Made by a program: the position numbers and the translations under genes. Of a stretch of 64,000 bases of DNA, positions 1,953 through 63,038 are shown piece after piece. This DNA comes from Patescibacteria group bacterium (GTDB lineage Bacteria; Patescibacteriota; Gracilibacteria; BD1-5; UBA6164). The notes below the pieces were generated by a model, which was not told where the DNA came from, searched no databases, and saw nothing but the letters and a program-made list of their open reading frames with translations. Every line of letters begins with the position of its first letter. Positions within the stretch are counted from its first letter, which is position 1. The DNA is taken from NCBI GenBank assembly GCA_036172015.1, contig JAVHSE010000023.1:42266-106265 (forward strand), given 5' to 3'.

Positions 1953-2786
1953 ATGATCCTCACTTCCTCAAAATTTCTTAAATTTCAAACTAATACTTCT
2001 TTATGAACTGACAAAGATAGGCATTTAGCGATATTAAAATATTTCAATGATAATAATATTATATTCACCCAATATAATTTAAGCTACGATATAACAGAAA
2101 TATTATATACCTTATGATTTTTACATTTAGATGAATATATTACTCAGTCAAGAAAGTCTGACTTATTTTCTCCAGCAATCGAATATTTGTGACTAATTAA
2201 TAAATGAATTGATTTGTTAGAAAGTACTAATTTTTGTTTTTGTATTTGATATCCCGCATGACATCATGCAGAAAAGACATGGTCAGCTGGGAAATGATTT
2301 TGCGTATTCTCAAATGCTTCATTTGCAGCATTAAAAATGAAGCAAATCTATGGTAATGTGTTAATAATAGATTTCGATTTACATCAATGAAATGGAACTA
2401 AAGATATAATAAAAGATGAAAAAAATATTTTCTTATTTTCTTGTCATAACAGTAATCTATATCCATTATATTGAGAAAATTATGATACTTCATTAATAAA
2501 TTATATGGGCTATAACATAAATAATCCTAATTTTGAAAATTGAATTATTGAATCCATATGAAAAATTTGTCATACTTTTAATTCCGATTGTATAATTCTT
2601 TCAGCTTGATTTGATAGTCATATAAATGATCCCATGAGATGATGAAAATTTACAAATGAAAGTTATATAAATCTGTGAAAACTTATTAAAAAATTAAATT
2701 TACCAACTCTAGCTATTCTTGAAGGATGATATAATTTAGAAATTATTTGACGCTTAATATTTGAATTTAATAGTTTATTTGATTAA
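1953..2786 (+). CDS. Histone deacetylase/AcuC/acetylpolyamine amidohydrolase family protein (short N-terminus)
   Basis: 277 aa in code 25. Motifs GYPAGHHAEK, IIDFDLHQGNGT, LSAGFDSHINDP and LEGGYN supply the His-His pair, the Asp/His metal ligands and the catalytic Tyr of the HDAC fold. Confidence 0.8.
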
Positions 2787-2928
2787 TAATATTATATATA
2801 ACTGACTTATTTATATGAAAATCTTAGCAATTGCAGATAAAAAATAAATAATCTATTTATATCCTTTGTTAAAACCATACATATCTATGATTTTAGCTTT
2901 TGTATATTGTATTGAATTATTATTTTCA

Positions 2929-3104
2929 GTTAAGAAACCGTTAAGATTTTGTTTATTTTTTGTAAAGATAATAAGCATACATACTTGGAAATATTTATAT
3001 TTCTGCTCTACTTTTTATTACTATAAAATTTTGAAAATTAGTTAGTTACATTATTCTTTTTTCTATTACAATATCTATGAGTTAATTGAGCATTTTCTAT
3101 ATTA
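2929..3104. repeat. 176-bp direct repeat, copy 2 (overlaps the true 3' end of the DUF262-HNH gene)
   Basis: Identical to 1630-1805. Positions 3038-3104 are the last 22 codons plus stop of CDS 3038-4435. Confidence 0.9.
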
Positions 3105-4435
3105 GTTTTTCATCATCTTGAAAATGGTATAATATGATCTACTTCTGCATCATCAATTGATATTATTTGTTGTTTACATATTTTACAAGTTTTATCTAAT
3201 TCAAATAATGATTTTTTTATATTATATGGGTATATTCTGTTTTCTTCTTTAGGATTTCATATAATTTCTTCTAATTTTTCAAACCAAATTTTAAATCTTT
3301 TTTGAAGTTGTTCTTTATTACTTGTTTGATTTAATATACAATCAATAAACTTTTGATTATTAGACATTAATTTTATAAATTCTTCTTTAATAACATCTGT
3401 ATTTTGAATTATTTGATTTTTTGTATATTTCGCAAAGCAACACATTTGAATGTCATAAATTGCCATATTTATTCTTGTTAATGCCCAGTATCAATTTGTA
3501 TTTTCATTATCTCATGGTATATATCTTCTAAAAGCATTTTCTCAAAATACACTATATACTAATTCAGTGGTATTTTTAAATATTTCTTTATATTCTTTTA
3601 TTTTTTCATCAGAAAGGTTTCTAAATTCTCTTAAATGTTTATTAGAAAATTGTTTTATACTTGGTTTATAATTTAAATATGATTTTTCATATAAGGCAAA
3701 AAATCTTAAAATCATTCATCTATAAATCATTCTATTCTTATAATTATCTTTTCTTACAAGTTTATTAAAGATTTCACTATTTTCTAAATCTGCTAATAAA
3801 TCCATATATTTTCATCTATAAACAGTATTTCTTATTTCATCCTCATTTAGTTTAATAGATCACGTGTTTAATCTTTCAAATATTTCAAATTTTATATCCT
3901 CATTAGATTCTTTTTTTATAATTATTGTATGAAGAGTCGTTGTTTTTATTTTATTTTGATCTTCCTTTTCTAATTGAGAAAAAGTTTTTCAATTTAATTC
4001 TTTTAATATATTCAATCAAATTAATTTAAAAGGTTTATTAGTTCAGGAAATTTTTTCTTCAATAAATGTTAAAAATGATGTTAATCTTTGTTGTCAATCA
4101 ATAACACTATATTTTCAATCTTTTTCTTCATTTAAATATATAACTGGAAGAGGAACATTCATTAAAATTGATTCAATTAATCTACTTGATTGTTTTTGAT
4201 TCATAACAAAATTTCTTTGATAATCAGGTTGTAATACCAAATCTCAATCTTGTTTCATAGATAAAAATTCTCTAATTGTTATATCTTTAGGTTGCCAAAT
4301 AATATTTCTATTATTTCATTCAATTTCTATAAATTCATTATCTTTTTCAACTTCTTCATCATAATTTTCTTCTTCTATTTCATTTTGAACCTTATTTTTT
4401 AATTTTTTTTCATCTAATATTGCATCACTATTCAT
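3038..4435 (-). CDS. DUF262 (GmrSD/ParB-like NTPase) protein with C-terminal HNH endonuclease; type IV restriction-like
   Basis: 465 aa. N-terminal LQPDYQRNFVM...IDGQQRLTS. C-terminal HNH DHIIPFSRGGKTNIENAQLTHRYCNRKK, in which GG is TGA-TGA at 3110-3115. Confidence 0.8.
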
Positions 4436-4530
4436 AAATTTAAATTAATAATTAAATTCCAAAAATATTATATATTTTTTCAAATTTTAGCTCGTTTAGT
4501 ATATAAATATTAACAATTTTTGCAAAAAAT

Positions 4531-4548: not shown

Positions 4549-4864
4549 ATAACTCATCCAGAATTTTTTCTAATGCGAAAATAATCTCTTTTTCATTTAC
4601 ATTTTCTTTTATAGTTTTTGAATAAATAAGAATTGGGAGTATATTATCTCAAAACTTTTTTACAATTATTCTAAATCCTCATCTTTTTCCAGTCGGAATA
4701 GAAGAATTTTTTAATCTATATTTCAAAATATTATTTCATAAATCAGAAAATGGTTCTATAATTAAATTATTTTCGAAAAATAAAATATCTTCATGTATAT
4801 TTTTATATTTTTTTGATAATTCTAAAACTTGAGAATTAAAAAATGTTGTTTTTATAAATTTCAT
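4547..4864 (-). CDS. RelE/HigB(Gp49)-type toxin
   Basis: 105 aa, MKFIKTTFFNSQ...PTGKRGGFRIIVKKF.... The G-K-x-G-G-[FY]-R-[IV]-I motif is typical of this toxin family. Start overlaps the upstream small ORF. Confidence 0.65.
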
Positions 4865-5085
4865 AATTTTTCTTCAAGTTTATTATTAAGATTTGCAAAA
4901 TAGGCATTCTGAGAAAGTTTATTTTTTGTTTCTAAATCTTGTTTTTTCTCAATATAATCAAAAACTGTTTCTGTAATCACTGCTTGAAAAATATTATCGT
5001 CACTTAAATATTTATAATCTTTTTCAAGTATATTAATACTAATCGTAGTCATATTTTTAAAATTAAATTTTAAATTCATTTTCAT
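4852..5085 (-). CDS. Putative antitoxin (small ORF overlapping the toxin start)
   Basis: 77 aa from ATG 5085 (alternative ATG 5052). TISINILEKDYKYL may be an RHH-like strand-helix. Role inferred from position only. In code 25 it reads through TGA 4861-4863 to TAA 4852-4854. Confidence 0.45.
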
Positions 5086-5187
5086 TATTCATTATAAACT
5101 TTTTTCAAATTTTGCAAAAAAATAAGATATAAATAAGAAATCTTTTTAGACTTCTTATTTATACAAACAAAATATTCCTTTTATTTC

Positions 5188-5277
5188 AAAAACACAATTT
5201 CAAATTCCTTTCGTAATCACTCTTGCGAAACTATATGAATTTTCCAACCAAACATATCAGTAATCTTTTTTACTATT
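5188..5277 (-). pseudogene. Orphan fragment of a histidine-kinase 3' end (about 88% identical to 9844-9933)
   Basis: Translates IVKKITDMFGWKIHIVSQEGLRKEFEIVFLK*, versus the intact HK end ...IVKKITDMFGWKINIVSQEGVGTEFEIIFLR*. No upstream coding continuation. Confidence 0.75.
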
Positions 5278-5333
5278 TTTATTATATATGTCTAAAAAAT
5301 ATAAGACATGGTAACCCCTTATAAGAGTTTTTC

Positions 5334-6518
5334 CTAACTTCTTAATGCATCTACCGGATCCATTTTACTCGCTTTATAGGCTGGATAATATCAAAAAAAT
5401 ACTCAAACAAATACAGCAAAACTAAATGCTCCAATTCTTCCAAAAATACTTGGTAACACTTCAATGATATCAAAATAAGTAATAAGAGGAATAATAATAT
5501 CTCCTAAAATAATTCATAAAACTCCTCCAGAAATACTTAAAATAATAGATTCAAATAAAAACATATTTAATATATCATTTCTTTTAATTCCAATAGATTT
5601 TAAAATTCATATTTCTTTTGTTCTTTCAGCGACTCCAGCAAACATAACATTCATAATTCAAATACCAGATACTACTAAGACTATTATAGCCACTCCTGTT
5701 AATAACAAAGTCATAGTATGAGCAGCATCTTGAGCTGCTGTTACTTTTGATCATTGATCAACAACTCTAAAATCATCACTATCAATAGATCTTAATTTAT
5801 GTTCTTGTCTCAAAATTTCTCATATCTGAGTAATTGCTGGAGAAATACTTTCTATATCTTTTGCTAAAGCTATTAGTCTCGGACTTCCACTGTCTCAAAT
5901 AATAGATTGACTCATAGGATATGATATAAATATAGAATCATCATAAGTTATTGGTCATATAGCTGTTCCTGATTTTTTAAAAACTCCTATAATTTCTACT
6001 TTCTTTTTTCAAATATTTATCGTTTGCCCGAGAGCGAGTTCGGGACTTCAAAAGAAATCAATGGCAGCTCCATTTCAGAGTATGGCTCATTTTGTCTTAT
6101 TTTCGAGTTCAAGGTCACTGAAATAATTTCCATATTCTATATTGAGTTTTGAAATAGTTAAAAATTCTCCCATGATTCATAAAATAGTAGTTGAGAGTGT
6201 ATTTTGATTACTTTGAGTTAATAATTTTCATTGTAAAATAGCAGTTACCGATGAAATATAGGTACCATTATTTTTTATAGTTACAACATCTTCTTCATTT
6301 AATTGTGATTTTTGTGTTCCAGATGAAACTGGATTTATGAGTATAGAAGTCACGGCTAGATTGGCATACTGATCTTCTATTGATTTTTGAGCTCCAAGTC
6401 ATATCGCAATTACGAGTACTATCGTAGAAACTCATATAATAATACCTAAAGAACTTAAAAAACTTCTGAGTTTATTATTATAAAGAGATTTAATAGCCAT
6501 TTTTAATATTTCTCACAT
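5334..6518 (-). CDS. ABC transporter permease, MacB/FtsX type
   Basis: 394 aa. N-terminus ..AIKSLYNNKLRSFLSSLGIIIGVSTIV, C-terminus GYYPAYKASKMDPVDALRS*. Alternative start at 6500. Confidence 0.8.
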
Positions 6519-7236: not shown

Positions 7237-9231
7237 TTAATAAGTTATCTTATCTCCAAGTTTTAATCAACTCATGACTTCGACCATCTTTCCATCAGTA
7301 AATCAGGTAATTATTTGTTTATATGTTCCATTTTCCATCATAACAGAAGGTTTTTTATTAATATTTTTTACTCATGGAACTGGAATAATAAGAATATTTT
7401 TTACTTGTTTTGTTATAAATTGGATAGTAGTGGTCATAGAGTCCTTTACTCTCGTATCAGATACTTCAAAGAGTATTTTTACTTCATAACTTACAATTCC
7501 ATTACTATCAATATTTGCTTTATCATTTATATATATAACCATTCCTGTGAGAGTCAGTCATTCTATAGAATCAAATGTTAAATATACCTCTTGTTTATCT
7601 TTTATTTTCATAATATCTCATTCTTCTACAAAAGATTCAACATACATAGTAGAAGTATTTATAACAGTAGCAAAGGCTCATTTCAAATTATTAGTTTGAT
7701 CTCATACTCTCCCAGTGATATCAACTATTTTTCCAGAAATAGGACTATATAATTTTGCATCTTCTTTTTTTTGATTTGCTTCTTCTAGGTTCTTTTTTGT
7801 CGTAGCTATAGCAATAATAAAAGGATCTAAATCAAGTATATCAACTTGAGATTTACTTTCTAAAAGAGTTTTTGAAATATCAACTTGTGAGTTTTCTTTT
7901 GAAAGTAATGATTCATTTTTTAGTTTTGTATTTTCTATTTGTATATTTACTTGATCTAACTTTTGTTGCGCTCAAGAAAGTAAAATATCATTTTCTAAAA
8001 GGATTTTTTGATAATTTGCTTCGGCTATTTTTAATTTTTGCTGTGTAGATACTACTTGATTTTTTGAGGCATCAATTTTTACATCGGCACTTGTTTTTAT
8101 TTCAGCTGCAGTTTGGATGAAACTGCTAAAATTAGCCAGACTCGTTTTACTGTCAGATAATACTTTTTCAAAATTTGAAATATAATTATCAATCGTGATT
8201 TGAGATAAACTTTGGGAAGTAATAGAATTTTTTAACACATCAAGAGTGGAATGAAGAGTTCTATTTACTCAACTTCAGATTTCTTTGAGTTGATTCATAT
8301 ATTCATCTCATTTTGACAAATCTGGACTTTGTCTATATATTTTCCAATCAGAATAAAAACTATCAAATCCTTGTTTTGTTTCTCTATAATTATTTTCTGC
8401 AATATTTTTTAATGAACTATTTTTTGCTCAAAGATATATTTCAAAAGTATCATTGTGATATTTATTGGAATCACTTATTCATAAAAGCATATCGATATCA
8501 AATAAATTTTTCTCAATTATACTTATTATTTGCCCAACTTCCATAAGTAATTTATTTTGAGCATTGGTATATTTTTCTTCTTCTTGAGAAATAGTATAAT
8601 TTGCATTATCTTGAGCTATTTGTAGGTCTATTTTTGAGGTATCAATATTATTTTGAGCATTGAGAAGACTCAGTTCTATTTGTTTTTGTATATTATCTAG
8701 ATTATCTTTTGCTATTTGTTTATTATCAAGAGCTGTTTGAAGATCAATTTCAGTTTGTGATTGTACACTCTGTAAAGAAATGATATTCGCCTCTAATTGC
8801 TTTGATTGAATATCTATTTCATTTTGAGTTCATCATCTGTTTTTAATTTCATAGTTTGATTGTGCTGTTTTGAGTGATAGTTTTGCTTTTTCTATATTTA
8901 TATTGAGATATGTATCATCAAGTTCAGCTATAAGTTCTCATTTTTCTACTCTATCTCACTCTGTTTTATATATATTTTTAATAATTCATATATTTTGAAA
9001 ATCTAAGCTAAATTCATCTTTGAGACTCACTTTCCCATCAGATTCTATATATACTTTTAAATCATCTTTTTTTACGGTAAATTTTTTTGTTTCATTTGTG
9101 TTTATGATTTCTTTTGGTATAAAAACATAATTATAACCAAAATACGAAATTCAAACGAAAAGGAAAAGAAAAAATATTTTTTTAAATATTGATTTTCTTT
9201 TATCTGATTTTATTTCATCTACTAATGCCAT
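7237..9231 (-). CDS. HlyD/MacA-type membrane-fusion (periplasmic adaptor) protein with long coiled coil
   Basis: 664 aa. N-terminal TM FFLFLFVGISYFGYNYVF, repetitive coiled-coil middle, C-terminus ..GKMVEVMSGLKLGDKITY*. Confidence 0.7.
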
Positions 9232-9241
9232 ATATAAAAGA

Positions 9242-9730
9242 TTATTGAGTAAAAGATATTTTTACAAATTCAGCTACTTTTTGTTCCTTTATTTCAACAT
9301 TAAGCCAAACTGAAATATATTGTCATACCTTAAAATCAGCAATACTCGCTTCTGTATTTGGTGCATCTGGTCAAGAAGCTGTTTTCTTAAGTATTTCAAT
9401 TCCAACGGGTACTATTAATTTTATTTCTCATAAAGTAGCTTTATTAATTTCTTCTTTTAAAGCCATTCTGGCAGATTCATCCATAGATTGCATATATTTC
9501 TTTTTTTCTGTAGGAGTCATATTAAAAGTTGGATCTTTTGAAATATCAACTGGTAATAATGTAATTTCATTTCATTCCATAGAAACTATTTTTCAATAAA
9601 CATCGACTTTTCTTTCTGGTTGTAGAGATTCTTGTGGAGTGTTAGAAACTTCAGGAGATAGAGTTGTTTCTTTTGAACAACTTGCGAGTATCAGAAATAA
9701 TACTGATATCAATAATATATATGTTTTCAT
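9242..9730 (-). CDS. Lipoprotein, first gene of the efflux cassette
   Basis: 162 aa. MKTYILLISVLFLILASCSKE is a signal peptide plus lipobox Cys. Confidence 0.65.
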
Positions 9731-9836
9731 AATTATATGGTAAGTATATAAAAGTAACTTACAAATAATATGTATGGAGTTTAAACTAAGTTTAAATTTT
9801 CTCTAAAAAATTCAATTTTAATAGTGCATTCAGATT

Positions 9837-11117
9837 TTATCTTAAAAATATAATTTCAAATTCCGTTCCTACTCACTCTTGAGAAACAATATTTATTTTC
9901 CAACCAAACATATCCGTAATCTTTTTTACTATTGATAATCCTAATCAAGAACCACTTTCAGAGTACAGAACTGACTGGTCATGTCTATAAAATCTTTCAA
10001 ATATTTTTTTCAAATTTTCTTCTTTTATTCCAATACCTCTATCAATTATTTTTATAGATTTCGCTCAAATTATCACTTGTATTTCGTTATTTCCATTATT
10101 ATAAAAAATCGCATTCATAATAATATTATCAAACAGTCTATCGATATAATACACATTGCTTTCAATGACTAAATCATTTTGAGAGAGAATATTTATTTTT
10201 ATGTTTTTTTTCGAAGCAATCGTCTCATATTCGACTCATTTATGAGTAAAATATTGAGTAAAATGTATGATTTCCTTTTGTGTATTTATTTCTTCTCCCC
10301 TGAGTAAAAATGAAAGATTTGAAATAATATTATTTATATTTGTAACAGCTGAACGAATATTTTTTAATTTTAATAAAATTTTTTCATCGGTAATTTTGTT
10401 TTCTAAAATTTCAATACTCGAATCAATTTGCATCAATGGAGTTTTTAATTCATGACTCACATCTTGAATAAAATCTTTTTGTGAATGAAATATATCTTTT
10501 ATTTTTACAATAAAACTATTCGTAGAGTCAATATATTTTCAAATTTCAGAATCTCAATATTCATTTTGGATTCATTTTGAATCTCGGTAAATATCATAAT
10601 CTTTTATAAAATTTGATATATTTCAAATAGGTTTTAATAAATTGATAGTAAGAAAATAAGTAATTAAAAAAATAACTCCTACAAGAAATACATCCAGAAG
10701 AAGAACTAATTCAATAAATTGATTTTGTATTTTTAACAGATCTTCAATATTTTTCCCAATAATTATATTATAACCTTTATAATCTCATCTAAAAATAATA
10801 TTTTTATTATCATAATAGTGAATTCAAATTTTATATTTGAGTTGCAATGTTTCATCATTATTTCAAAGAGAAAAGAAAAATCATAAAGAATGTATATGTT
10901 TCATTTCATATTCTCATAAAACAAAAATATTTTCTTTTTGTATATCTATAAAATGAGTAATTGTTTGATATTCATTCTCAATATTTTTAATAATCGTATC
11001 TCTAAATTTCTGAGTGATTCCAATATATAAAAAATACGAAAAAATATTGACTACAAAAATAATGAATAAAAAAAATGTTATAAATATACGATTTTGTATT
11101 CAAAGTTTAGTTTTCAT
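9837..11117 (-). CDS. Sensor histidine kinase
   Basis: 426 aa. TM segments near the N-terminus, H-box MSHELKTPL, C-terminal ATPase end ..ITDMFGWKINIVSQEGVGTEFEIIF. Start overlaps the response-regulator stop by 11 nt. Confidence 0.85.
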
Positions 11118-11787
11118 TGGTTTCAAATTTAAATCATATTCATCTGACGGTTTTTATATAATCAGCTTGATTTCATATATTTATTTTGCTACGAATAGAA
11201 TTAATATGAGTTCGCACTACATCTGACCAAATATCATTATTTATTCCCCAAATATATTCTACCAATTCTGATTTTTTTATGACTTTATTTTTATGTATCA
11301 TGAGATATTCGAGTATTTGAAACTCTTTTGGTGTTAATAAAATATTCCTTCCATTTCTATTGACTTCTTTCAAATCTTGATTTAAAACAATATCGGCACA
11401 CTCAATTATATTCAAATTATTACTCTTATGTACTCTTCTTAAAATACTTCTCACTCTCAAAATAAGCTCTTTCAAACTAAATGGCTTTGTTATATAATCA
11501 TCAGCTCAGAAAGTAAATCATTTTTCTTTTGTTTCTAAATCTTCTTTTGCTGTGAGGAGTATTATAGGAGTATTTATTTTATGGAGTTTTATTTCTTTCA
11601 GTATTTCTATTCCATTGATATATGGAAGCATAATATCAAAAATAAAAATATCATATTGATTTTTGAGAGCTTCTTTTAATCCTGATTGCCCATCACTTTT
11701 TAAAGTAACGATAAAATTATTCTCACTTAAAAATTCTCTTATATTTTCTCAAATAATTTTATCATCTTCGATAAGAAGTATTTTCAT
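11107..11787 (-). CDS. OmpR-family response regulator
   Basis: 226 aa. MKILLIEDD, FDIMLPYINGIE, DDYITKPF. The wHTH end ..DYIKTVRGIGFKFETNEN is reached only by reading TGA 11173-11175 as Gly. Confidence 0.9.
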
Positions 11788-11855
11788 AGTATTTGATTAT
11801 CATTTAATAAAATGATTATAATTAATTTCAATAAAAATCAATGAATCAAAATATT

Positions 11856-13139
11856 TTATTGTGATAGCTTTCAAATTTTAGATTGAATTTCTGACCAAAT
11901 ACATACCGATTGATATTCAAAAATTTTTTGTTCTAATTTTTCTATTTCCATAGAAATACGGTGAAAAAAATCCGCCCCTTGTAAAACATCAAATTCTTTT
12001 GAGATTCTATAAAAAAATTTTTTTGTTTCTTCTATTTTTCTGTATGCTTTTTTAATATTTTCGGTTGTAAAATGAGAATATACTTCGGTAGTTTGCAAAT
12101 TGTCTATTCTATCCCAAAATTTTACTTCAAGTGCATCTAAAACGATACTTTTTATAGTAGATACTTCTATAATAATTTTATTTTGTTCAATAACATCTCT
12201 GGTATGATTATAAAAATTATTCATACAAGGAGTATCTCTAAAATGATCTATGTAATAAATAAAATGAGTTGCTGGAAGCATATGAGAAAAATATTCATAA
12301 TTTCTCATATTTCTATATTTTAAATTTAATTCTTCATACCACTCTTCAAAAAATTTTTCTTCTACAGTAATTTGTTCTGGATTAAAATTTTTTTTATTAA
12401 TAAATCTATCATTGAGTAATCACTTTCGATTGAGTATACCTGACGATTGTATATATTTTAATTTTTCCCAATCTGATAAAGACTGTACCCATTTTCTTTC
12501 ACATTCTATTTCTGATTTTTTTAGTAAGTGTCGTTTATTGTATTTTTTTTCTAAATATTCATGAGTAGGATATCGATCGTCATCTTTTCTTAAAAATCAT
12601 ACTTCTTTCAATTCGTCTAAAATATATACCTCAGGTAATATTTTATCTCAATTTTTTTGATCTTGTGTAGTTAATTCAGTAAAAGGTCGTTTGCTAATAA
12701 TCGCAACTCAAAGAGCAATTTTTATATTTAAAGTAGTTTCTAAAGTATGTAAATCATAATCAGTATCTTCAATACTATCATGATGAAGTGCTATGAGTAA
12801 TTTTCTTAAAGATGGTTTTTTTGATTCAATAAGTACATTATAAGCAACTCTTAAAAGGTGATCAAAATACCTTCCTCCATTATTTCTATTAATATTTTGA
12901 AATTTATGTTTTACAGAAGCATAGGTATGATTGAGTGCTTGAAGTTTTTTTTCTGCATATTCTTGGGTAATTTTTCATGATTGGACATCTTGTTGATATA
13001 ATATTTTATATGCTGTATTCCATAATATTTCAATAGATCTTTCAGGTGACCAATTTACAGCATCATTAAAATGAACAAATTCCTTATTAAGAACTCGTTT
13101 TCCATTTTCTCATGATTGACTTAAAGTAGGAATAATCAT
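11856..13139 (-). CDS. HD-domain protein, RelA/SpoT-type hydrolase-like N-terminus plus unassigned C-terminal half
   Basis: 427 aa. HLLRVAYNVL...LLIALHHDSIEDTD carries the His...His-Asp...Asp pattern of SpoT-type HD hydrolases. The C-terminal ~250 aa have no motif I recognise. Confidence 0.6.
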
Positions 13140-13230
13140 ATGAAAGATTAAAAAATATTTTGATGTATAAGAATAAATAATAATCATTTTTGACTAAAAT
13201 CAAATTTATTTTATAAAATATTTATATATT

Positions 13231-49013: not shown

Positions 49014-49571
49014 TTACTTTGATAAAAGATCTTTTAATTCAAATATATTTCTCTCAATTATAGGCTTTACTTCTTCAAAAATCCAATTACGATTGATAGA
49101 TTCTAATTCATTAATACTGAGTTTTGTATTATTTACACATAAATAATATATGTTATTTATATTTCCAATCATATCAAAACTTGATCATTCAGCTTGAGTT
49201 ATATATTGCCAATCTCATATATTAAAAGTATTTCAAATAATTGCTAATTCTTCAAATTCACTATTTTCTATAGCAGACTCTTCTTGATCTCTTAATGAAA
49301 AATCATACACTGGAGTAAATATTTCATCTTTTTTTTCAATAATTATAATTTCATCAAAACAACGAGTTAATTGTATAAATTGTAAAGATATATAATCAAG
49401 TTCTTCTGTAATTTTATCAGGGAAAGAACTTATAAACATTCTTCTTCTAAAAGAAAGTTTTTTTTGAATTAATGGTGCGATTTGTGATTGTATAATTCAT
49501 CTGGTTTCATCTATTTTGTTTTTTCAATATGGTTGAGGTACACTATTATTTTGATATTCTTCTATAATCAT
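49014..49571 (-). CDS. Hypothetical protein
   Basis: 185 aa in code 25, with no recognisable motif. Preceded downstream by hairpin aataaagag-N14-ctctttatt. Confidence 0.45.
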
Positions 49572-49908: not shown

Positions 49909-51771
49909 TTAGTGAGAATTAAAATCAAGGATTATATTAAATAAAATTCTAAAATTTTCAAATTCTCCACTATCTAATATTCTAACTTTTTCAGTAAAAT
50001 TATTTTTTGAAGTATCTGATTCAGAAATTTTATAAAAATATAAATCTTCTTTTTTATCTATTTGATCCTGATTTAATTTATCTCTCACATTTGTTATACA
50101 ATGATTTATATCATCAAAAGTTCTTTTTGATATCATTCAACTAGTTTTTAATATTTCTTTTGAATATAAAAATTCAATCGGACAATTTTTATGAGTTTCA
50201 AAATCTGTATTTGGACAAGGAAGAGTAATTCAAAAAATATTATCTCTTTCTTTTACTTTATATTTTTTATTATCTTCCAAAGAATCTCAAATTTGTTTAA
50301 TTTGTTTTAATCATTCATTATCATAATCGAATATTCAAACTACAACTTTATTTTTAAAGAAGTCTTTTGGAATTCAAAGTAAAAACTGTTTTAATTTATC
50401 AGCTCAATCACATGAATAAATATCAAATTGATTTTTAATTCAAAGTTTTTCAATTGCAATTTCTAAATGCTTTTTATCTGTAATTCACTCTGTAACTAAT
50501 AAATATTTATTTCAACTATTTAGAAGAATTTCCATTTCATTTAGTGACATTTGTCAATCAGTAATTTTATCCAAAATTTCCCTTTTTTCTTTTAAATCAA
50601 GTTTTCAGTTTTCTAAATAAAATAAATGTTTTTTATTAAATTTATTCATTAAGGTTGGCGAATGTGTAGTCATGATAACTTCTCATTCTCAAAAGTTTAT
50701 TAGATAATTTTCAAATAAAATTTTTAATTTTTGTTTATTTCAAACATGAATATATGAATCAGGTTCATCTAGTAAAACTAAACTGTTATTTGAAACTAAT
50801 ATATTTGTAACAAAATAAATAAGTAATTGCTTTTTTTGTCATTCACTTAAATCTAATAAGGGTATATTATCAATAAGCTTTAAATTTATATTGTTTATAA
50901 GTTTATCATTTTTAGTTAATCAAAAACAAGCAATTGATAAATGCCAAAAGAAATCTAAATGACTTCAAATAGTTCAATAATCATCACTGTATTTTCTCAA
51001 AGATTCTAGAGTCCAATCATTTTTTGAAGATATTATTTTTACGAAATTTGTTACATCATTTTCTTTAAATTTTTCTAAGTTTTTTTCATCAATATCAAAC
51101 TCAATTTCATTAATCTTAATTCATTTTCAAAGTATATTTTCAACTCATTTGTATAATTCGTCTGTTTCAAAATCATATACTGAAATTAAGATTGTTAACA
51201 AAGCAATATTCCAAAAATCTTTGTTAATAAAAATCATTTTTGGAGTATCAAAAGAGAGAGTTGCTCAATCTAAAGTTAATTTATTATTTTTAACTGAAAT
51301 AATAAAATTTTGATAATATTCTTGATAATATTTTTCGTAAAGTCTTGTTTCTTCTCCTGAGTATAAAGCAATAATATTATATGGTAATATTAAACCTCTA
51401 TCAATATTTTTTGTAAATACTCAATCAATGTAATATCAAACCATTCTCATTTCTGTATCTTCTCACATCATACTCATAAAATCTCCTCAAGTAGGTCAGA
51501 TTGAAATTCATCATTTTGTATATTGTTGAATAACTTTTATATTTTTTCAGTCTTTAAAATATTCTAATTCATAACTAAAAGCACATCTTCTTTCATTTGT
51601 CTCATCATAAAGTCAATAAAAAATTGCACTTATTGCTTCAAGTACATTTGATTTTCAACTTCAATTGTTTCAAACAAAAATTGATATTCATTCAGATTTT
51701 GTAAAATCTATTGGATTTTCCCAGAAATCTAGGTTTTTAAATCATTTTATTTTTAGTGAGATTAGTTTCAT
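49909..51771 (-). CDS. Fused ABC-type (AAA_21-like) ATPase plus C-terminal TOPRIM/DUF4435- or RloB-like domain (AbiL/PARIS/OLD-like)
   Basis: 620 aa. Walker A VGNNGSGKSNVLEAI, LSEGQKK, Walker B LVLLDEPDSYIH, TTHSP. C-terminal LLVTEGITDKKHLEIA (TOPRIM Glu) and GIFDYDNEG (DxD). Confidence 0.75.
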
Positions 51772-52205
51772 TGTGTTCTTTTATTACAATATTTTTCTAT
51801 ACTCCTAACAAGAATATCCATATCATTACCATTAATTCTTGGTTCTGGTTCAGAAATCTTAATATCTTCATTATCATAATAAAGACTAGCTGATAGTATA
51901 ACTGAAATAACTATCGTAATGAATAATAAAAATCATGAAAAAATTAAATATGCTTTATCTTTAAAATCTTTATATTTTTCAATAATAATTCACACTGAAA
52001 TAAATGCTATTCAAAAAGAAATATTTATGAAAATATTTAATTCTAAATCAGGTTTTATAAAATTTGGTATAAAATAATTAATTCAAATTATAAGTATTTT
52101 TATTAAAGCTATAAATAAAACTGGTAATATCCCAATAATTATACTTTCTTTAAATCTAATTTTATTATCTTTTCACATAAAAAAATTTATAATTTTATTA
52201 AGCAT
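51762..52205 (-). CDS. Small 3-TM membrane protein overlapping the start of the ATPase-TOPRIM gene
   Basis: 138-147 aa (ATG 52205 or 52178). TM segments IIIGILPVLFIALIKILIIG, IFINISFGIAFISVGIII and LIFSGFLLFITIVISVILSA. Its 3' end overlaps the downstream start by 10 nt. Confidence 0.5.
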
Positions 52206-52232: not shown

Positions 52233-53603
52233 TTAACTAAAAATTTCCCTCTCAAACTCAACTTTTGCAATTTCTTTCAAATCCCCAGAAAGTTTTTTCA
52301 AACTCTTAATTTCTTCTTTTAAATCTCAAATATGTTTTACTATTTTGTCTTGAGTTTCAATTTCTGGTAAAGGAAAAAATATTTTTAATAAATTTCAAAC
52401 TCATAATTCAGTTTGTTTTGTTGCTTGAGCAGATTTTATATTATCTACTTGTTCTTGTCATAAATTATTATTAAAGAAAGTTACAAAAAAATCTGGATTA
52501 ATTATACTTTGATTCAGTCTTAATAATAATAAGTGACTATCATATAATAATCCTTCAAATCATTCCCTTATTAAACTAGCTCTTCATATTGTCCCTTCTC
52601 AAGTTGAATTAATTAATATATCTCAAGTTTGAGTCAATAAATTATTATCAATTCATTTTAACCAATTTTCATCAACTATTTTTCAAAATTGTAAGTCTAT
52701 TTCATCCCACCTATTACATTTTTGGTTTAATATGATTTTATTTCATTTTTCCGAATATTCAGGACTTTTTCATCTTTTAATATCTTTATAATAATCTATA
52801 TTATCTCATAAAGACACAAGTTTATATTTATCACTAGAAAAAAGATTAAATATATTTATCTTATCAACTCCCCATTCCTTTATTTTTAAATAATCCACAA
52901 AATTTAATCATATTTTTTTATTTTCTTTTTCTTTCACTTCAATTCCTAATTCTTCCATCAAATAACTTTCAATTTGTTTTTCTAATTCTCCAGCTTTTAT
53001 ATCAGCATTTAAAGAATCTTTAAGCTTTGCATTATATTCTTCTACAATTCTATTTTGTTCTTCTAAACTTGGAAGTGGTATTTTTGTATTTAGAAAAACA
53101 TTCATATCAACTCTTTGTCTTCAAGTTGTTCAACTACTTCATTGTTGAGTGTAATCCAAAAATTCTTTTGTTCATAAAATAAGTATTAGAAATTGAATAT
53201 TTATTTTATTTTTATCTACTATAAAACTTGGAAAATCATTTGTTACAATAGCTCATTTTAAATCTACTGGAACTATTCAAAAAGCTCAATTTCTGGCATC
53301 AATTTTTGACATTATAAATTCTCATCATGAAACTAAAAATTGTTTTTTAGTTCAGATATTTTCTCACTTTTCTATATCTCTCAAAAAAACTCAATTATTA
53401 TTCATTTTTATAGTAACTCTTTTGTATTCTTTTCAGTCTTCTATATCTATTTGAGTTTTATTTCTCATCAAAAAATCTCAAATTTTTACAAATTCAAAAT
53501 TTTTGTTATATGAAAAGGCTGTTCATTTCAGATATTGAACACTCCAGTTTGAGACATCTATAAAGTCTATAAATTTCAAATATGTATTATTTAATATTTC
53601 CAT
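52233..53603 (-). CDS. hsdS: Restriction-modification specificity subunit (HsdS-like, two TRDs)
   Basis: 456 aa. ..SSGTTGRQRVDMNVFLNTKIPLPSLEEQNRIVEEYN.. (central conserved region), ..STGEGTIGRA.. and ..IFFPLPEIETQDKIV... Confidence 0.85.
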
Positions 53604-55233: not shown

Positions 55234-57366
55234 TTACCATAAATTATTTTGTTTTCTATATTTTGCAAATTCTTCTGCAAGTGGTTCAAGTTCATTTTCT
55301 ATAACTGCTCAAGTTGTAGAAATTCAAGCTTTATCAACTTCTGCAATAGCAATTTTGTAATTAAAAGTTTCTTTTATTTTCCTTTTTGTTTCCATATTTC
55401 TTTTTTCCCATAATACCACTATCTCAGCAGGAATCTTCTTTTTTTCATCTTTGTCTTTTATTTCTTTGAGTTTTTTAGTAAGAGACTTAATTTGTGAATC
55501 ATAGATTCATCCTATATCTAATTCTGCATGTGCTTTTATTTCTTCATATTCTTTTTCCTCTTCTAAAGTAAATTTCTTTAGAAAAACTAAACTTGGCTTA
55601 ACTGTTGCTCAACTTGCAACAAACACATCTTGAGGTATTGAAGTAATTAATAGTATTTTTGCTCTTCATTCAAAATAATCTCTTACTTTTTGTAAATTTG
55701 AATTATTCAAAACTCATTCAGGAAGAACAATTCACATTCTTCATCATGCTTTTAAAAGCCTTAAATTTCTTTCCATAAATAAGACTTCTGTAAGAGTTGT
55801 AAACTTTCCTAAATCATATAAATCAACCAAATTTTTACCTATATTTCATTCAATTTGATTCAAAGCTTTTAAATATTCATCTCAATATTTTTCAATATAA
55901 TATTTCTTCTTAACTTCATCTTTATATTTATCTCATTCTTCTATTTTTAAATCTTTAGGAACTCTAGAACCAAAAGGAGGATTTGCAAGTATTACATCAA
56001 ATCTATTTTCAAAAATTCAGTTTACATTTAATAGTCAGTCATTATGATGAATTCCATTATGTCAATCTCAGTGCATTATCATATTCATTTTTGAGACTCT
56101 TGCCATTCTAGGATTTGCATCAGTCCCAAAAATAGAATTATGACAAAGTTCATTTATTCTTTTTTCTTCTTCTTTGTTTATTTCTTCTAAGTAATTATTA
56201 TATTTTTTATTTAGTTCTTCATTCTCAATATTTTCCAAATTTTCTCAGAAAATTTCTTTTTGTTTTTGTTTCTTTAATAAAATAAATTCATTAGATATTT
56301 CTTCTCTTATTTTCTCAAAAGCTTTAATTAAAAATCAACCTGAACCACAAGCAGGATCGCAAATTAACTCTCATTCTTTTGGTTCTAATATATCAACCAT
56401 AAAGTTTACTATGCTTCTTGGTGTAAAGAATTGTCATAATTCACCTCTTAAGGTTCTTCAAAGAAATTTTTCAAAAGCAATTCACTTTATATCTGAACTT
56501 GTAGTAGTTAGATTATATTTTTCCAGTTCTTTTACTATTTGTTCAAAACTTACTTCTCTTAGATTTATTTTCTCATATTGGTCAAAAATATTATCATTTT
56601 TAAATTCTTCTTTAACATCTTCAAAAAGTCTTTGCATATATGAATTTTCTTTTTCACTTCCCATTCTTATAGTTTCCCATGCATCTTTTAATTTTTGAAA
56701 TTGTTTAAAAGAAAAAATTGCTTCTTGTTTTGGTTTTCTTTCATACATTATTTTAATAAAAAGTATTTTCGATATTTCATCAAAAGCACTTTCAGGAGAA
56801 AGTTTATCATTATTTCTTATTATATTATGACATTTTTGTAATACTTTTGAAAATTCGTCTCAAGTAAATTCTTTGGTTTTAGCTAAAAAATCTTCTAATT
56901 TCGCATTATCTAAAATATCTTTTACATGAGGAATATCGTTTACTGGTTGTAAACTTAAAGGTAGTTCTTCTTCTACTGTTTTATAAACTTGAAGTTCTTT
57001 TGAATTGCTTACTGCAAAAAGTTTTGCTCTACTCCAAGTAGCATAATTATATCATTGATAACAATCTTCAACTTTTAAATTTATATAAGGAGCTTTTAGT
57101 TCCACAACTAAAAATGCAGTTTTATTTGATAATTTTTCCTCTTTAGTTTTCCATACTACTATATCTGCTCTTGCTTTTCAATTTCCTCTTTGAGAGTTTG
57201 TTAATAAAACCTCTTCATACATTTGCTCAAGAGAGTATCAATAATCATTTATTAATTTACAAACAAATTCTTGTCTTACAATCTCTTCTGGAGTTGATTC
57301 AAGATATTTATCTCTTATAAAAGAATAAATTTTTCAATTTTTATCATATTTTAATTCTAGATTCAT
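55234..57366 (-). CDS. hsdM: N6-adenine DNA methyltransferase (HsdM-like) with N-terminal PD-(D/E)xK/HsdR_N-like domain
   Basis: 710 aa. N-terminal KARADIVVW...AFLVVELKAP. GQFFTPRSIV, CDPACGSGGFL (motif I), LANPPFGS (motif IV). Confidence 0.85.
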
Positions 57367-59335: not shown

Positions 59336-61024
59336 TTATAGCTGGATTACATTTTCTTCTCAAAAAACATTTTCCCATCAATTTAATGCATTTGCATTTA
59401 AACTAGATAAATAAAGAACAACTAGTTTGTGTTTTGCTCTTGAAAGAGATACATATAATAAATTTAGTAATCTTTCTTCTGCTTCTAAATGTTTTTCTTG
59501 ATCTTTATTTAGTTTTTCTCAAGAAACTAGCTTATCAAATCATCTATAAATATACCACCTATGAGAATCATCAATTATTACTAAAACATTATCATATTCA
59601 GCTCATTTAGTTCAATGTTGTGTTGAATAAGGAGTCATATTTTCTCTATATTTATAATATTCAATTATTTCTTTGTATTCCAGATTTAAAATAGAGTTTT
59701 TAAATTCATTAGCTATTTCTTGTCTTTCAATTTTTTCCTGTTCAGAAAAACTCTCTAATAAATATTCTTCAAATTTTGAAATTCTATCAGTCTTTTTAAA
59801 AATGTTATTATTAAAAATATATTTTAGAACTGTTTCAATAGATTCATTATTTCTTATTTTCTCCAATCAAATAATTAAATTTTTTAATTTCTCTTTATCT
59901 GTTATTTTATTTACTTTAAAATCTTTATCTCAAAATAATTCAAATAAATTATAATAATCCTTTTTGTTAAAATAAAAAATAAGCTTTTCAATTTTTGTAA
60001 CTAAAAAATTAATATAAGGTTCATCAGCCTCTTTTAATCTATCATTTCCATTTAAACTGTATCTTTTTTCAAAAATATCTATTAAATTTCTAAATCATAA
60101 ATCTTCTCATATCTTTTTGTTAGTTAGAACTAATATTTTATTTTCAGAAGGATTATTTTCGAAGTCCCAGTTTAAAACTTCTAAAGTTTTTTTATATTTT
60201 TCTTCAACATCTAAAGAATTTGAGTAATAAAAGTTTACTTCACCATCAAAGTCTTTCATAGCTACTTGTTTTAGTCAATCTTTTTTTTCTCTGACATTAT
60301 TTACTAATTTAACAATTTTTTTTCAACTTCTAAAATTTTCTAATTTTTCTATTTTTTCTAATTTATCACTAATAAGTTTTCAAATTGTATTATTTTGATA
60401 GATTTTTTGCATTGAGTCTCAAAAAAATCATAATAAAAACTTTTCTTGATTTCAGTTTAAAACTTCTAAAAAAGTATTTACAATTTCTTTATTAGTATCT
60501 TGATATTCATCAATAAATAAATATGGATATTTTCTTATTAGTATTTTTGCTAAAGAAGGATACTTATTGAACATTTTTACTGAAAAATTAATAACATCAT
60601 CATGTCATATTTCTCAATTTTTTAATCTTCTTCAATATTTTCAATAACTAATAGTTAATGATTTTAATAATGATTCAATATCATCAATTTTTTTATCCCA
60701 ATCTAAGTCATTATTTAATTCTATTATTTCCTTCTTTAAATTAACTTGATAGTCTCATATTAATGACCAAAGAAACTCATGTATTGTATTTATTTCAACT
60801 ATATCAGAGTATCATAATCTTTTTATCATTTCATCTTTAGCGACATTTGTATAAGTTATACAAGCTATTTTTTCTCATGTATGATAAAAAGAGTCTCATT
60901 TAATTGAAATTATATGTCTTATAGTTTCAATTAGTGTATATGTTTTTCATGATCATGCTCAAGCTTCTAATATAAAGCTTTTTTTATTTTTTATTGATTC
61001 TATTACTTTTTCTATTGTAGTCAT
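59336..61024 (-). CDS. UvrD/PcrA/Rep-like SF1 helicase (GajB-like)
   Basis: 562 aa. Walker A LEAGAGSGKTYT, FIDEYQDTN, FFGDSMQKIY, STQHGTKGAEYDNV, LLYVSLSRAKHKL. Confidence 0.85.
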
Positions 61025-61025
61025 A

Positions 61026-63038
61026 TTATTTTGATAACCAAATTAAACCTTCTTTAATATATTTTGGAATAATAAATGACTCCATCATCAATACATCAAA
61101 AGCAAAATCTGTCTTTAAAGAATTATTATCTATATAACTTGAAATTTCCCAAGATTTCTCTTTTACTTGATCTTTATTTAATGAAGAAAATTTATTTTTT
61201 AAAATTATAGATTCTTTAGAGTAATTTTCTAGTTTTTCATAATTTGCTAATATAAATGCCTCTTCAAAGCTTCTTCATGTATTTCAGTTTTCCTCAATTT
61301 GATATGCAACTCTATAATTTCATACAATTTTGCTATTTTCTGCTAATGATAATAAAACTGACAATTCCTTTTTTCAAGGAATCCAATTTATTAAAGTATA
61401 ATTACTAGTGTATTTTCATTCAGATACTTTATAACTACATTCTTTAGAATCATCAGAATCAATCTTTTTTCAAGTAAATCATAATAGTATTTTTTCTTCC
61501 TTTGTTTTTTTATCAACAGAATCAATATCTGTAATTATTAAAGTTTTTATTCATATAAATTCAAGAAAATTCTTAAATTTATGTGAATATGCTCATCAAA
61601 CTTCTATAATAGAAATATATTGAGAAGTTAATTTTTCATGAATATTTTCAATCTCATTATCTATATTTAAAATAAATAATGGTAATAAAATTCTTTCTAC
61701 CATTCACTCTATTAATATTAATTTATCAGCAAAAAATATATCTGATTTTTCTAAAGTTAAATATTTTTTTAGAAATTCAAAATTTCATTCATCGTTGAAG
61801 TTGTTCAAATCTTTGACTTCAGTATTACTATTTTCTTTTTTGAAGTATCTAATTTTTGTAAAATCAGAACATGTGATAATATGAGAAGAATGAGTCGTTA
61901 AAACTATTTGCACATTCCATCATTTGCTATTTATAAACTTTTCTATTTGCTTAATAAAAGTTTGTTGCATTTGTGGGTGTAAATGAGCTTCTGGTTCTTC
62001 TATAAATAATAATTGAAATTGTGGAATAGGTTTTAACTTGATGAATTCTCAATATAAATATGAAAATTGAAGTATTATATATATTAAATTACTATATCAA
62101 AGTCCATTGTAGGATTCAGGTAACTGATAATCTCAGTTTGAGTAGTATATTTTTGAGTTATTTCATTTCATTAATTCTACTGCAGACAATTCAGCTTTTA
62201 ATGATAATTTTCTATCTTTGTCAGACAATCATGGATATCAAAAATTTCATAAATCTTCTTGTAGAACTTTAAAAAACTTTAAATATTCTCCATCTAAGCT
62301 ATCGTTAGTTTTAGACAGTAATGTATCTAAACCTTTTTCTATGTTTAAGTCTGTATTTTTCTTAAAGTAATTTTCAAATATTTTTGATAAAGTATTATTT
62401 TTATCAGAAGAGTTATCATCTAAATCTCTTTGGGCATTTATAAAACTTGTATTAAATATACTACCTATATCTTTATTAAGTTTATGCATTAAATTTGATG
62501 AATCAATAACAAACTTTTGAATCTCAAAATTTCATTCAAAGTTATTTTTTATATAATTTATAATTTTAAAATCTTCTTCATCTCAATATAATTCTTTAAT
62601 TTTTTGATAAAATCATATCTTATTTTTCATCACTAATTTTAGACAGATTTTATACTCATCTATTGAGTCTTCTAAATCTCCTCTAAAATCTAATCAATCA
62701 TCATCTTCTTCTATCTTAAAGTTAATAATAAGAATTATTTCCGGTATGGATTCTTCAAATATATTATATTTTTTACCTCTTTCTTTTTCATCTTCTATTT
62801 CTTTTTCATAGTCCATGTATAACTTTAAAGATTCTTTTAATTTAACATGTGTACATATTGAGAAATCATTGAAATCAAATTTACTTCAATCATTAAAAAA
62901 TTTTTTAAATAATTCTGTTAATGATGTTTTTCAACTATTATTTCTTCATACAATAATAGTATGATTTTTATTAAATTCTAAATTCTCAATGTTATGTAAT
63001 AATCTAAAGTTTTTTATACCAATGCTTTTTATGTACAT
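61026..63038 (-). CDS. OLD-family ATP-dependent endonuclease (class 2 OLD / GajA-like): ABC ATPase plus TOPRIM
   Basis: 670 aa. Walker A VGRNNSGKTSL, Walker B LLFIEEPEAHLHPQ, LTTHSSH, TOPRIM LILIEGMVERILLP and LIITDIDS. Stop lies 1 nt before the helicase ATG. Confidence 0.85.

Follow-up and report, generated by a model that had tools for sequence, protein, structure and literature searches.

An OLD-family nuclease linked to a BcgI-like restriction-modification system, with an exchangeable small membrane protein, in a member of the Gracilibacteria

What is an ATPase-nuclease gene doing directly behind a restriction-modification (R-M) operon, and is the small membrane protein encoded just in front of it a partner of the nuclease or a guest? 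The question arises from a stretch of 64,000 nucleotides (nt) of a Patescibacteria group bacterium belonging to the Gracilibacteria (assembly GCA_036172015.1, contig JAVHSE010000023.1, positions 42,266 to 106,265), referred to here as the window. A first-pass annotation of this DNA had placed an open reading frame (ORF) for a fused ATPase-TOPRIM protein directly after hsdS and had proposed a small three-helix protein, overlapping its start by 10 nt, as a possible membrane partner. Its coordinates for both ORFs hold under translation table 25. We find that the larger protein is almost certainly an OLD-family nuclease; that identity is known, and the new part is its conserved R-M genomic context. 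The small membrane protein is a real, orphan and exchangeable accessory and not a conserved partner. The genes on which the argument rests are the following:

49909-51771, minus strand: OLD-family nuclease of 620 amino acids (aa), with an ABC ATPase (residues ~1-400), a TOPRIM domain (~420-540) and a C-terminal helical region
51762-51771, minus strand: 10-nt overlap of two genes, in which the stop codon TAA of the small gene lies within the start of the OLD gene, ATG AAA CTA A
51762-52205, minus strand: 147-aa protein with three transmembrane (TM) helices, an acidic linker and a conserved C-terminal amphipathic helix (cassette family A)
52233-53603, minus strand: hsdS, an HsdS-like specificity (S) subunit of 456 aa with two target recognition domains (TRDs); Methylase_S in two stretches, PADLOC Specificity_I 174 bits
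53784-55295, minus strand: optional insert between the M and S genes, 503 aa, with the Pfam domains SLFN_AlbA_2 and HATPase_c_4
55234-57366, minus strand: R~gammaM subunit (M) of 710 aa, an N-terminal PD-(D/E)xK nuclease (HSDR_N_2) fused to a gamma-class N6-adenine methyltransferase (NPPF)

All of these genes depend on the genetic code that is applied. With table 11, only short ORFs are obtained across the region, and long frames appear once TGA is read as a sense codon. The Walker A motif of the 620-aa protein reads WNNWSWKS with table 4, whereas table 25 restores the canonical GNNGSGKS. TGA was therefore read as glycine, the code of Gracilibacteria, and tables 11 and 4 were rejected. The 620-aa ORF contains 37 in-frame TGA codons and the 147-aa ORF contains six. 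The region has a G + C content of about 21%, and the closest public relative is a Candidatus Gracilibacteria genome.

The 620-aa protein matches the Pfam families AAA_21, AAA_15 and SMC_N, and those PADLOC models that reach into its C-terminal half (retron I-B ATPase-Toprim, AriAB and GajA) are all ATPase-TOPRIM models. Its TOPRIM motifs are T-E428-G-I-T-D432 and D482-Y-D484-N-E-G. In an alignment of 28 sequences with 32-71% identity, the TOPRIM acids E428, D432, D482, D484 and E533 are invariant, as are the ABC residues of Walker A (K40/S41), the signature (S309/E310), Walker B (D335/E336) and H370. The description as an AAA_21-like ATPase joined to a TOPRIM module is thereby borne out. A profile search of the PDB paired the ATPase with retron Ec83/PtuA and AriA, and the TOPRIM and C-terminal region with the OLD-type protein of retron Ec67. 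The AlphaFold2 (AF2) model (predicted local distance difference test, pLDDT, 84.7) was matched best by Foldseek to full-length OLD proteins, namely those of retron Eco8 (E 3e-11), Thermus scotoductus (TsOLD, 6p74, E 3.7e-8) and GajA (E 5e-8), and further to AriA and to Rad50/SMC heads. TM-scores were low (~0.3), as expected for multi-domain chains, with a sequence identity of 11-15% to the solved OLD structures. The model OLD-like_TOPRIM (PF20469) did not match the window protein at E<=0.01; many members of the family carry precomputed PF20469 matches. More than 650 homologues were found, many of them named 'ATP-dependent nuclease' or 'OLD family endonuclease'. An ATPase and a TOPRIM domain in a single chain define the OLD family (PMC10568477), and we assign the protein to this family with near certainty. 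As a further observation, many Bacteroidota members of the subfamily (~700-755 aa) list an extra DUF4357 (PF14267) or PF14088 domain in precomputed Pfam annotations.

The neighbourhood of this gene was compared across relatives, whose loci carry numbers from L001 onwards. A scan of metagenomes with the core sub-alignment yielded 80 good loci, while an earlier scan of genome contigs had yielded about eight true relatives among 39 loci. Contexts were annotated with hidden Markov models (HMMs) built from the window's own module and with Pfam, and linkage was counted over those 69 distinct members of the subfamily for which 1.5 kb or more of sequence was available upstream. Either an S subunit or a fused nuclease-methyltransferase-S polypeptide is encoded directly upstream of the OLD gene in 65 of them (94%): 52 have an S gene, 13 have a single nuclease-methyltransferase-S polypeptide of ~800 aa, and four have neither. 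Where the sequence reaches further, a gene with HSDR_N_2 and N6_Mtase domains precedes the S gene. In almost every locus, the OLD start touches or overlaps the gene before it, be that S or a cassette (-35 to +30 nt). The linkage was seen across several phyla, in Gracilibacteria, Peregrinibacteria, Aliarcobacter butzleri, Kordia, a metagenome-assembled genome (MAG) of the Clostridia, Treponema and Flavobacteriales, and we regard it as well established. The two-gene form, in which the fused polypeptide is followed by the OLD gene, was found at L078, L080, L084, L092-L095, L098, L100, L101, L104, L106, L118 and L122.

The published OLD classes comprise solitary, helicase-linked, retron-linked and PARIS proteins (PMC10568477). 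R-M linkage is absent from these four class descriptions; Krishnan et al. 2020 may already note it. The label 'restriction-linked ORF' of the first-pass annotation stands as far as linkage is concerned, but the gene is not a classical Type I passenger, given that no HsdR is present and that the M protein carries a PD-(D/E)xK site of its own.

The second subject is the R-M partner. The R~gammaM protein matches Pfam HSDR_N_2 with 76 bits and N6_Mtase with 125 bits, and over its full length the PADLOC model MTase_I PDLC03018 with 983 bits. The residues D68, E89 and K91 of the nuclease motif (D68/E89-x-K91) and the NPPF motif are invariant in all 14 M orthologues. No HsdR, ResIII or helicase gene was found inside the module, neither in the window stretch nor in relatives with annotated genes or neighbouring ORFs. 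A nuclease-gamma-methyltransferase together with a two-TRD S subunit is the layout of BcgI (Type IIB; two R~gammaM plus S), the single-chain form is that of Type IIG, and both are complete R-M enzymes without a motor subunit (PMC3874165). Because the M proteins keep the PD-(D/E)xK site and NPPF, the S protein has two TRDs and HsdR is missing, the partner is to be read, from its domains and motifs, as a BcgI-like (Type IIB/IIG) architecture and not as a Type I system minus its R subunit.

Several variations on this R-M layout were noted. The first half of hsdS shares 88-96% DNA identity with that of L003 (4192-5481), with 90-96% over TRD1, and the second half falls to background (~40-57%), TRD2 being unrelated, a pattern of TRD shuffling. 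Between M and S lies a second variable slot, which holds an SLFN_AlbA_2/HATPase_c_4 gene in the window and in L003 (2650-4080), an NYN protein in L049 of the Peregrinibacteria (3839-4471) and an unannotated 285-aa ORF in L074 (3030-3887); it is empty in most loci. In Pedobacter albus (L012, 3056-9180) the methyltransferase has no N-terminal nuclease domain. A short Mnuc-like ORF (2373-3041) precedes it and a gene with a FokI cleavage domain follows the OLD gene, an arrangement suggestive of a cleavage domain provided in trans. Beside the module, L002 of the Gracilibacteria (8173-13151) has another R-M system of a different kind, made up of a helicase-nuclease of 825 aa (HSDR_N_2/ResIII) and a fusion of N6_Mtase and Methylase_S of 832 aa. 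In Faecalibacter rhinopitheci (L016, 4161-8139) the S gene is followed by two tandem OLD paralogues of 577 and 712 aa. In the Clostridia MAG (L010) a DEAD/ResIII-like protein of 1153 aa (7792-11253) is encoded after the OLD gene; together with the MAD6/PglW-like kinase of that locus (4705-5985) it possibly forms a bridge to MADS/BREX-type systems.

The place of the 147-aa gene was then considered in the same set of loci. The 3' end of hsdS and the OLD 5' end enclose a slot. Of 65 loci, 45 have nothing in it and 20 have an occupant; among the loci that use table 25, nine of ten are filled. Two stretches of conserved DNA bound it:

52233-52343, minus strand: left flank, the conserved 3' end of hsdS, 90-92% DNA identity to L001-L003 and 78% to L004
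51624-51771, minus strand: right flank, the conserved start of the OLD gene, with 93-96% DNA identity to L001-L004 (window-oriented positions 1891-1980) whichever cassette precedes it

Between these flanks, which span the final ~110 nt of hsdS and the initial ~150 nt of the OLD gene, sequences are alignable only where the same cassette family is shared, which for the window applies to L001 only. The occupants belong to at least nine unrelated families:

Family A, window and L001: three TM helices
Family B, 79-86 aa, Gracilibacteria, Peregrinibacteria and one table-11 contig: hairpin of two TM helices with a KRFLQW-YY-GG motif
Family C, 165 aa: one N-terminal TM helix and a soluble domain, with a ratio of nonsynonymous to synonymous substitutions (dN/dS) of 0.28
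Family D, 91-179 aa: three TM helices
TIGR03899-like protein, 287 aa: soluble
MAD6-like Ser/Thr kinase, Clostridia: soluble
Protein of 198 aa: soluble
Family of 197 aa, six metagenome loci: soluble
Second OLD paralogue

Every cassette lies on the same strand, is tightly packed and ends within the OLD start or a few bases from it. The unrelated cassettes of L002 and L005 show the same overlap as the window and the same terminal residues, GN followed by the stop codon, since their stop codons fall within the conserved first part of the OLD gene. The sharing of cassettes is incongruent with OLD similarity, as the window OLD is closest to those of L002 (family D) and L003 (family C). The synonymous divergence (dS) of the cassette is 0.31, half that of the flanking genes (0.65-0.68). 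From these observations, we are confident that the hsdS-OLD junction is a recombination slot with exchangeable cassettes. In loci of the candidate phyla radiation (CPR), four of the five cassette families have at least one hydrophobic segment and three have at least two. By the same hydropathy criterion, one or more such segments occur in 32% of the genes in the window and two or more in 14%, corresponding to binomial tails of ~0.04 and ~0.02, respectively. This is suggestive of a membrane bias beyond chance, in a small sample.

The window's own cassette starts 27 nt downstream of hsdS. It ends in CAA TGA AAC TAA, with the ATG of the OLD gene inside caATGAaa. The Kyte-Doolittle profile of the 147-aa protein shows strongly hydrophobic segments at residues 16-50, 54-77 and 83-111, and the AF2 model (pLDDT 70) has helices at 12-45, 52-77 and 81-112, a disordered acidic linker and a C-terminal helix at 126-144. 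It shares 75% identity with its positional counterpart in L001, while the adjacent OLD proteins share only 65%, and the comparison of the two small genes gives a dN/dS of ~0.41 (dN 0.128, dS 0.314). The reading of the ORF as spurious was rejected on the basis of this ratio and of a conservation higher than in the gene beside it. The gene is real and under purifying selection, and the three TM segments and charged tail attributed to it earlier are confirmed. Residues 1-9 are identical in L001 and position 10 of the L001 protein is not methionine, and for this reason the 147-aa start is favoured over a 138-aa start.

Searches of Pfam, NCBIfam and PADLOC gave no match for the 147-aa protein. Its sole homologue in a word-based search of 5.8e9 proteins and in an exhaustive HMMER search of 1.84 billion representatives is the L001 ORF, proteins of table-25 organisms often being mistranslated in public sets. 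A further word-based match (P0121) was not a homologue but the window's own protein read with TGA as tryptophan. A survey of whether homologues of this TM protein precede ATPase-TOPRIM genes elsewhere thus led to L001 only. With one homologue anywhere and no insert in 45 of the 65 related loci, the small ORF is for the most part not conserved beside homologous nucleases, and the idea of a dedicated, conserved membrane partner is largely refuted. A weaker, lineage-specific form of it survives, in that the slot is nearly always occupied in Gracilibacteria and Peregrinibacteria (nine of ten table-25 loci) and four of the five families there are membrane proteins. The N-terminus of the 147-aa protein carries a charge of +3 and the second loop one of +2. 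By the positive-inside rule, both are predicted to be cytoplasmic and the conserved acidic tail to be external.

Taken together, the locus can be read as one operon with three layers: an R-M system, an OLD nuclease as its second-line effector and an optional, lineage-specific membrane accessory. To this composite we give an even chance of being correct as a whole. In the first layer, R~gammaM and the two-TRD S subunit would mark self DNA and cut unmodified DNA without an HsdR motor. In the second, OLD, a member of a distinct restriction-linked subfamily whose translation start is coupled to the preceding gene, would act as the second-line effector of the R-M system. Its trigger might be double-strand ends left by the restriction enzyme in invading DNA, or a block of the R-M complex by an anti-restriction protein, as in PARIS and PrrC; once activated, it would destroy DNA or tRNA. 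Dimers of P2 OLD sense double-stranded DNA ends via their ATPase and then cleave tRNA (PMC13648713), and PARIS-like OLD-ABC/TOPRIM modules have been proposed as backup effectors of methylation-based systems (PMC12839542). In the third layer, the slot between the hsdS 3' end and the OLD 5' end takes up unrelated accessory genes. The 147-aa protein, dispensable for the core system and a lineage-restricted cassette, would be made together with OLD and would position the nuclease, or hold it in check, at the envelope, the entry site of foreign DNA. A role as membrane tether or gate for OLD is offered tentatively.

A number of points weigh against this composite. We infer the role of OLD relative to the R-M system from the neighbourhood alone, and physical contact between the 147-aa protein and OLD is likewise an inference. 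An external acidic tail would be more fitting for a sensor or an exclusion protein than for docking in the cytoplasm. The membrane enrichment comes from five families in AT-rich genomes with hydrophobic-rich proteins. The slot is mostly empty (45/65) and several cassettes are soluble (the kinase, the 197-aa family and the 287-aa TIGR03899-like protein) or a second OLD copy; membrane function is therefore not a property of the system. No co-variation was seen between cassette type and the OLD N-terminal/5' region. The region was found only in groundwater metagenomes sequenced as DNA, and no RNA run containing it was found.

The alternative that fares best holds that the hsdS/OLD junction is a recombination hot spot and that the 3-TM protein, for instance a superinfection exclusion protein, is a passenger acting independently of both OLD and the R-M enzyme. 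Much of the evidence on the slot fits this reading. The occupants are of at least nine unrelated kinds, including soluble enzymes and a second OLD copy, and most loci have none at all. Its conserved flanks and its lower dS mark the cassette as recently exchanged by lateral transfer, and the interval between M and S is another variable slot, with Schlafen/AlbA_2 or NYN genes. The predicted topology leads the conserved tail outside the cell, and family A is an orphan. Against a mere passenger stands the fact that all cassettes lie on the same strand, packed and ending at or near the OLD start, which points to translation coupled to OLD, as does a slot filled in nine of ten table-25 loci. Family B, of which only eight proteins are known, has furthermore been kept at this site across Gracilibacteria and Peregrinibacteria (40-66% identity, dN/dS 0.13), which suggests selection for residence. 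We consider the passenger a possible explanation, though a doubtful one.

A second alternative makes OLD part of the restriction enzyme itself. It would be an ATP-dependent restriction subunit docked on M2S in place of HsdR, giving a new ATP-dependent type of R-M system with the membrane protein as an accessory. The linkage of 94% and the gene overlap to S are in line with this, as are the absence of HsdR from the module, the placing of M under the Type I methyltransferases by PADLOC (983 bits), and the relationship of M to MAD2 and, weakly, of OLD to mad3 of another methylation-based system. The M protein, however, already has an invariant PD-(D/E)xK site, so that a second nuclease is not needed for cleavage, and BcgI-type enzymes function with RM and S alone (PMC3874165). 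Known OLD ATPases are, moreover, ABC-type sensors or clamps and not translocases. This alternative appears unlikely.

The membrane protein could also be the killing effector, a pore-forming or depolarising protein that the OLD ATPase releases or triggers, leading to abortive infection. Families A, B and D consist of little beyond helical hairpins or bundles, and other defence systems, among them CBASS, Pycsar and some retrons, employ small proteins with several TM helices as effectors. Against this, OLD retains all TOPRIM catalytic residues and is thus itself an effector, the core system occurs without any cassette in most lineages, and soluble cassettes are found in the same place, which renders the proposal improbable. 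Finally, an unusual fusion of a split AbiL, RloAB or PARIS pair with a dedicated conserved membrane partner, to which weak partial matches to the AbiLi, AriA and AriAB models (46-62 bits) had pointed and as which the first-pass annotation had seen the protein (one chain in place of AbiLi/AbiLii, RloA/RloB or AriA/AriB), is most improbable, since those matches span generic ATPase segments only, the architecture and fold are those of the single-chain OLD nucleases, the family of the 620-aa protein is large, and the membrane protein is not a conserved companion of it.

Returning to the composite of R-M system, OLD effector and optional accessory, its parts can be set against known systems. Like the Class 1 OLD proteins (P2 Old and TsOLD 6p74, Foldseek E 3.7e-8), the 620-aa protein falls among chains of ~570-620 aa without the helical insert of Class 2. 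Class 1, however, comprises by definition genes that stand alone, with no conserved neighbourhood (PMC10568477, PMC6755086), whereas the window's subfamily is 94% linked. With the Class 2 protein GajA of Gabija it shares the two-domain nuclease architecture. Unlike gajA, the 620-aa gene has no UvrD/PcrA/Rep-like helicase gene as a neighbour (upstream are the 3-TM ORF and hsdS, downstream a gap of 337 nt), GajA models match the protein only weakly (<=40 bits), and the GajB of the island is paired with a different OLD gene. As regards Class 3, no reverse transcriptase domain was found in the window's neighbouring ORFs or in annotated relatives; the non-coding RNA of a retron was not searched for.

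PrrC-EcoprrI is an ABC-ATPase-controlled nuclease that backs up restriction and fires when restriction is attacked. PARIS (Class 4), of which AriA is a structural neighbour of the 620-aa protein, resembles the system proposed here in the same concept. In contrast to PARIS, the AriA and AriAB models reach only 46-52 bits over part of the protein, and no DUF4435 match was obtained, so that there is no AriB of the DUF4435 type; in contrast to PARIS and PrrC-EcoprrI, the partner R-M system is BcgI-like and not Type I with HsdR, and no anticodon-nuclease domain is present. PARIS-like modules have been reported as backup effectors beside BREX (PMC12839542). AbiL and RloA-RloB differ in that a single gene is present here, with 62 bits to AbiLi over the ATPase only and no match to AbiLii.

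The R-M part resembles the BcgI-like Type IIB and Type IIG enzymes, either as R~gammaM with a two-TRD S or as an R~gammaM~TRD single chain, with PD-ExK and NPPF intact. It departs from them in its third, coupled OLD gene, the characterised systems consisting of RM and S genes only (PMC3874165), and in that the best PADLOC model for the M protein is labelled Type I. With MADS it shares an M protein that matches MAD2 (287 bits), an OLD protein weakly related to mad3 and, in one Clostridia relative, a MAD6-like kinase in the slot. Membership in MADS was rejected, as the mandatory MAD6, MAD7 and MAD8 are absent in the window and the 287 bits to MAD2 compare with a cut-off of 720 bits.

The module sits in a larger island on the minus strand, which is followed by pheT. 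In the order of the genes:

Minus strand: short tyrosine recombinase
61026-63038, minus strand: GajA, 576 bits (PADLOC)
59336-61024, minus strand: GajB, 459 bits (PADLOC)
Minus strand: unassignable gene of 574 aa
Minus strand: the module, that is the 710-aa HSDR_N_2 and N6_Mtase gene, the SLFN_AlbA_2/HATPase_c_4 gene, HsdS, the small ORF and the ATPase-TOPRIM gene
After the module: the gap of 337 nt, an orphan of 185 aa (49014-49571) and pheT

The canonical Gabija pair (59336-63038) brings the number of different OLD-family nucleases within 13 kb to two. No HsdR-like helicase is encoded among the genes listed. The 185-aa ORF between the island and pheT had no match in Pfam, NCBIfam or PADLOC and was not found 3' of the OLD gene in relatives, where the downstream genes differ (L11, DpnI, GatB). 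A scan for promoters and terminators at the locus gave fewer promoter-like sites than shuffled sequences and no terminators.

The control of solitary OLD nucleases is an open question in the field. A large OLD subfamily that is almost always tied to a motor-less BcgI-like enzyme has a trigger that can be guessed, namely DNA ends made by restriction or restriction that is blocked. Should the membrane protein be a passenger, what is left is a known nuclease in a genomic context that is new. In a more far-reaching form, which we put forward as speculation, R~gammaM and S (or their single-chain form) together with OLD would be a phylum-spanning defence system that acts as one machine and forms a fifth genomic class of OLD, and the junction would be a plug-in site for adaptors, in the CPR small membrane proteins that position or gate the nuclease. 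The cassette slot, whose CPR occupants are for the most part small membrane proteins, illustrates on a small scale how defence operons gain lineage-specific accessories, and it may hint that organisms with minimal genomes control a nuclease at the envelope.

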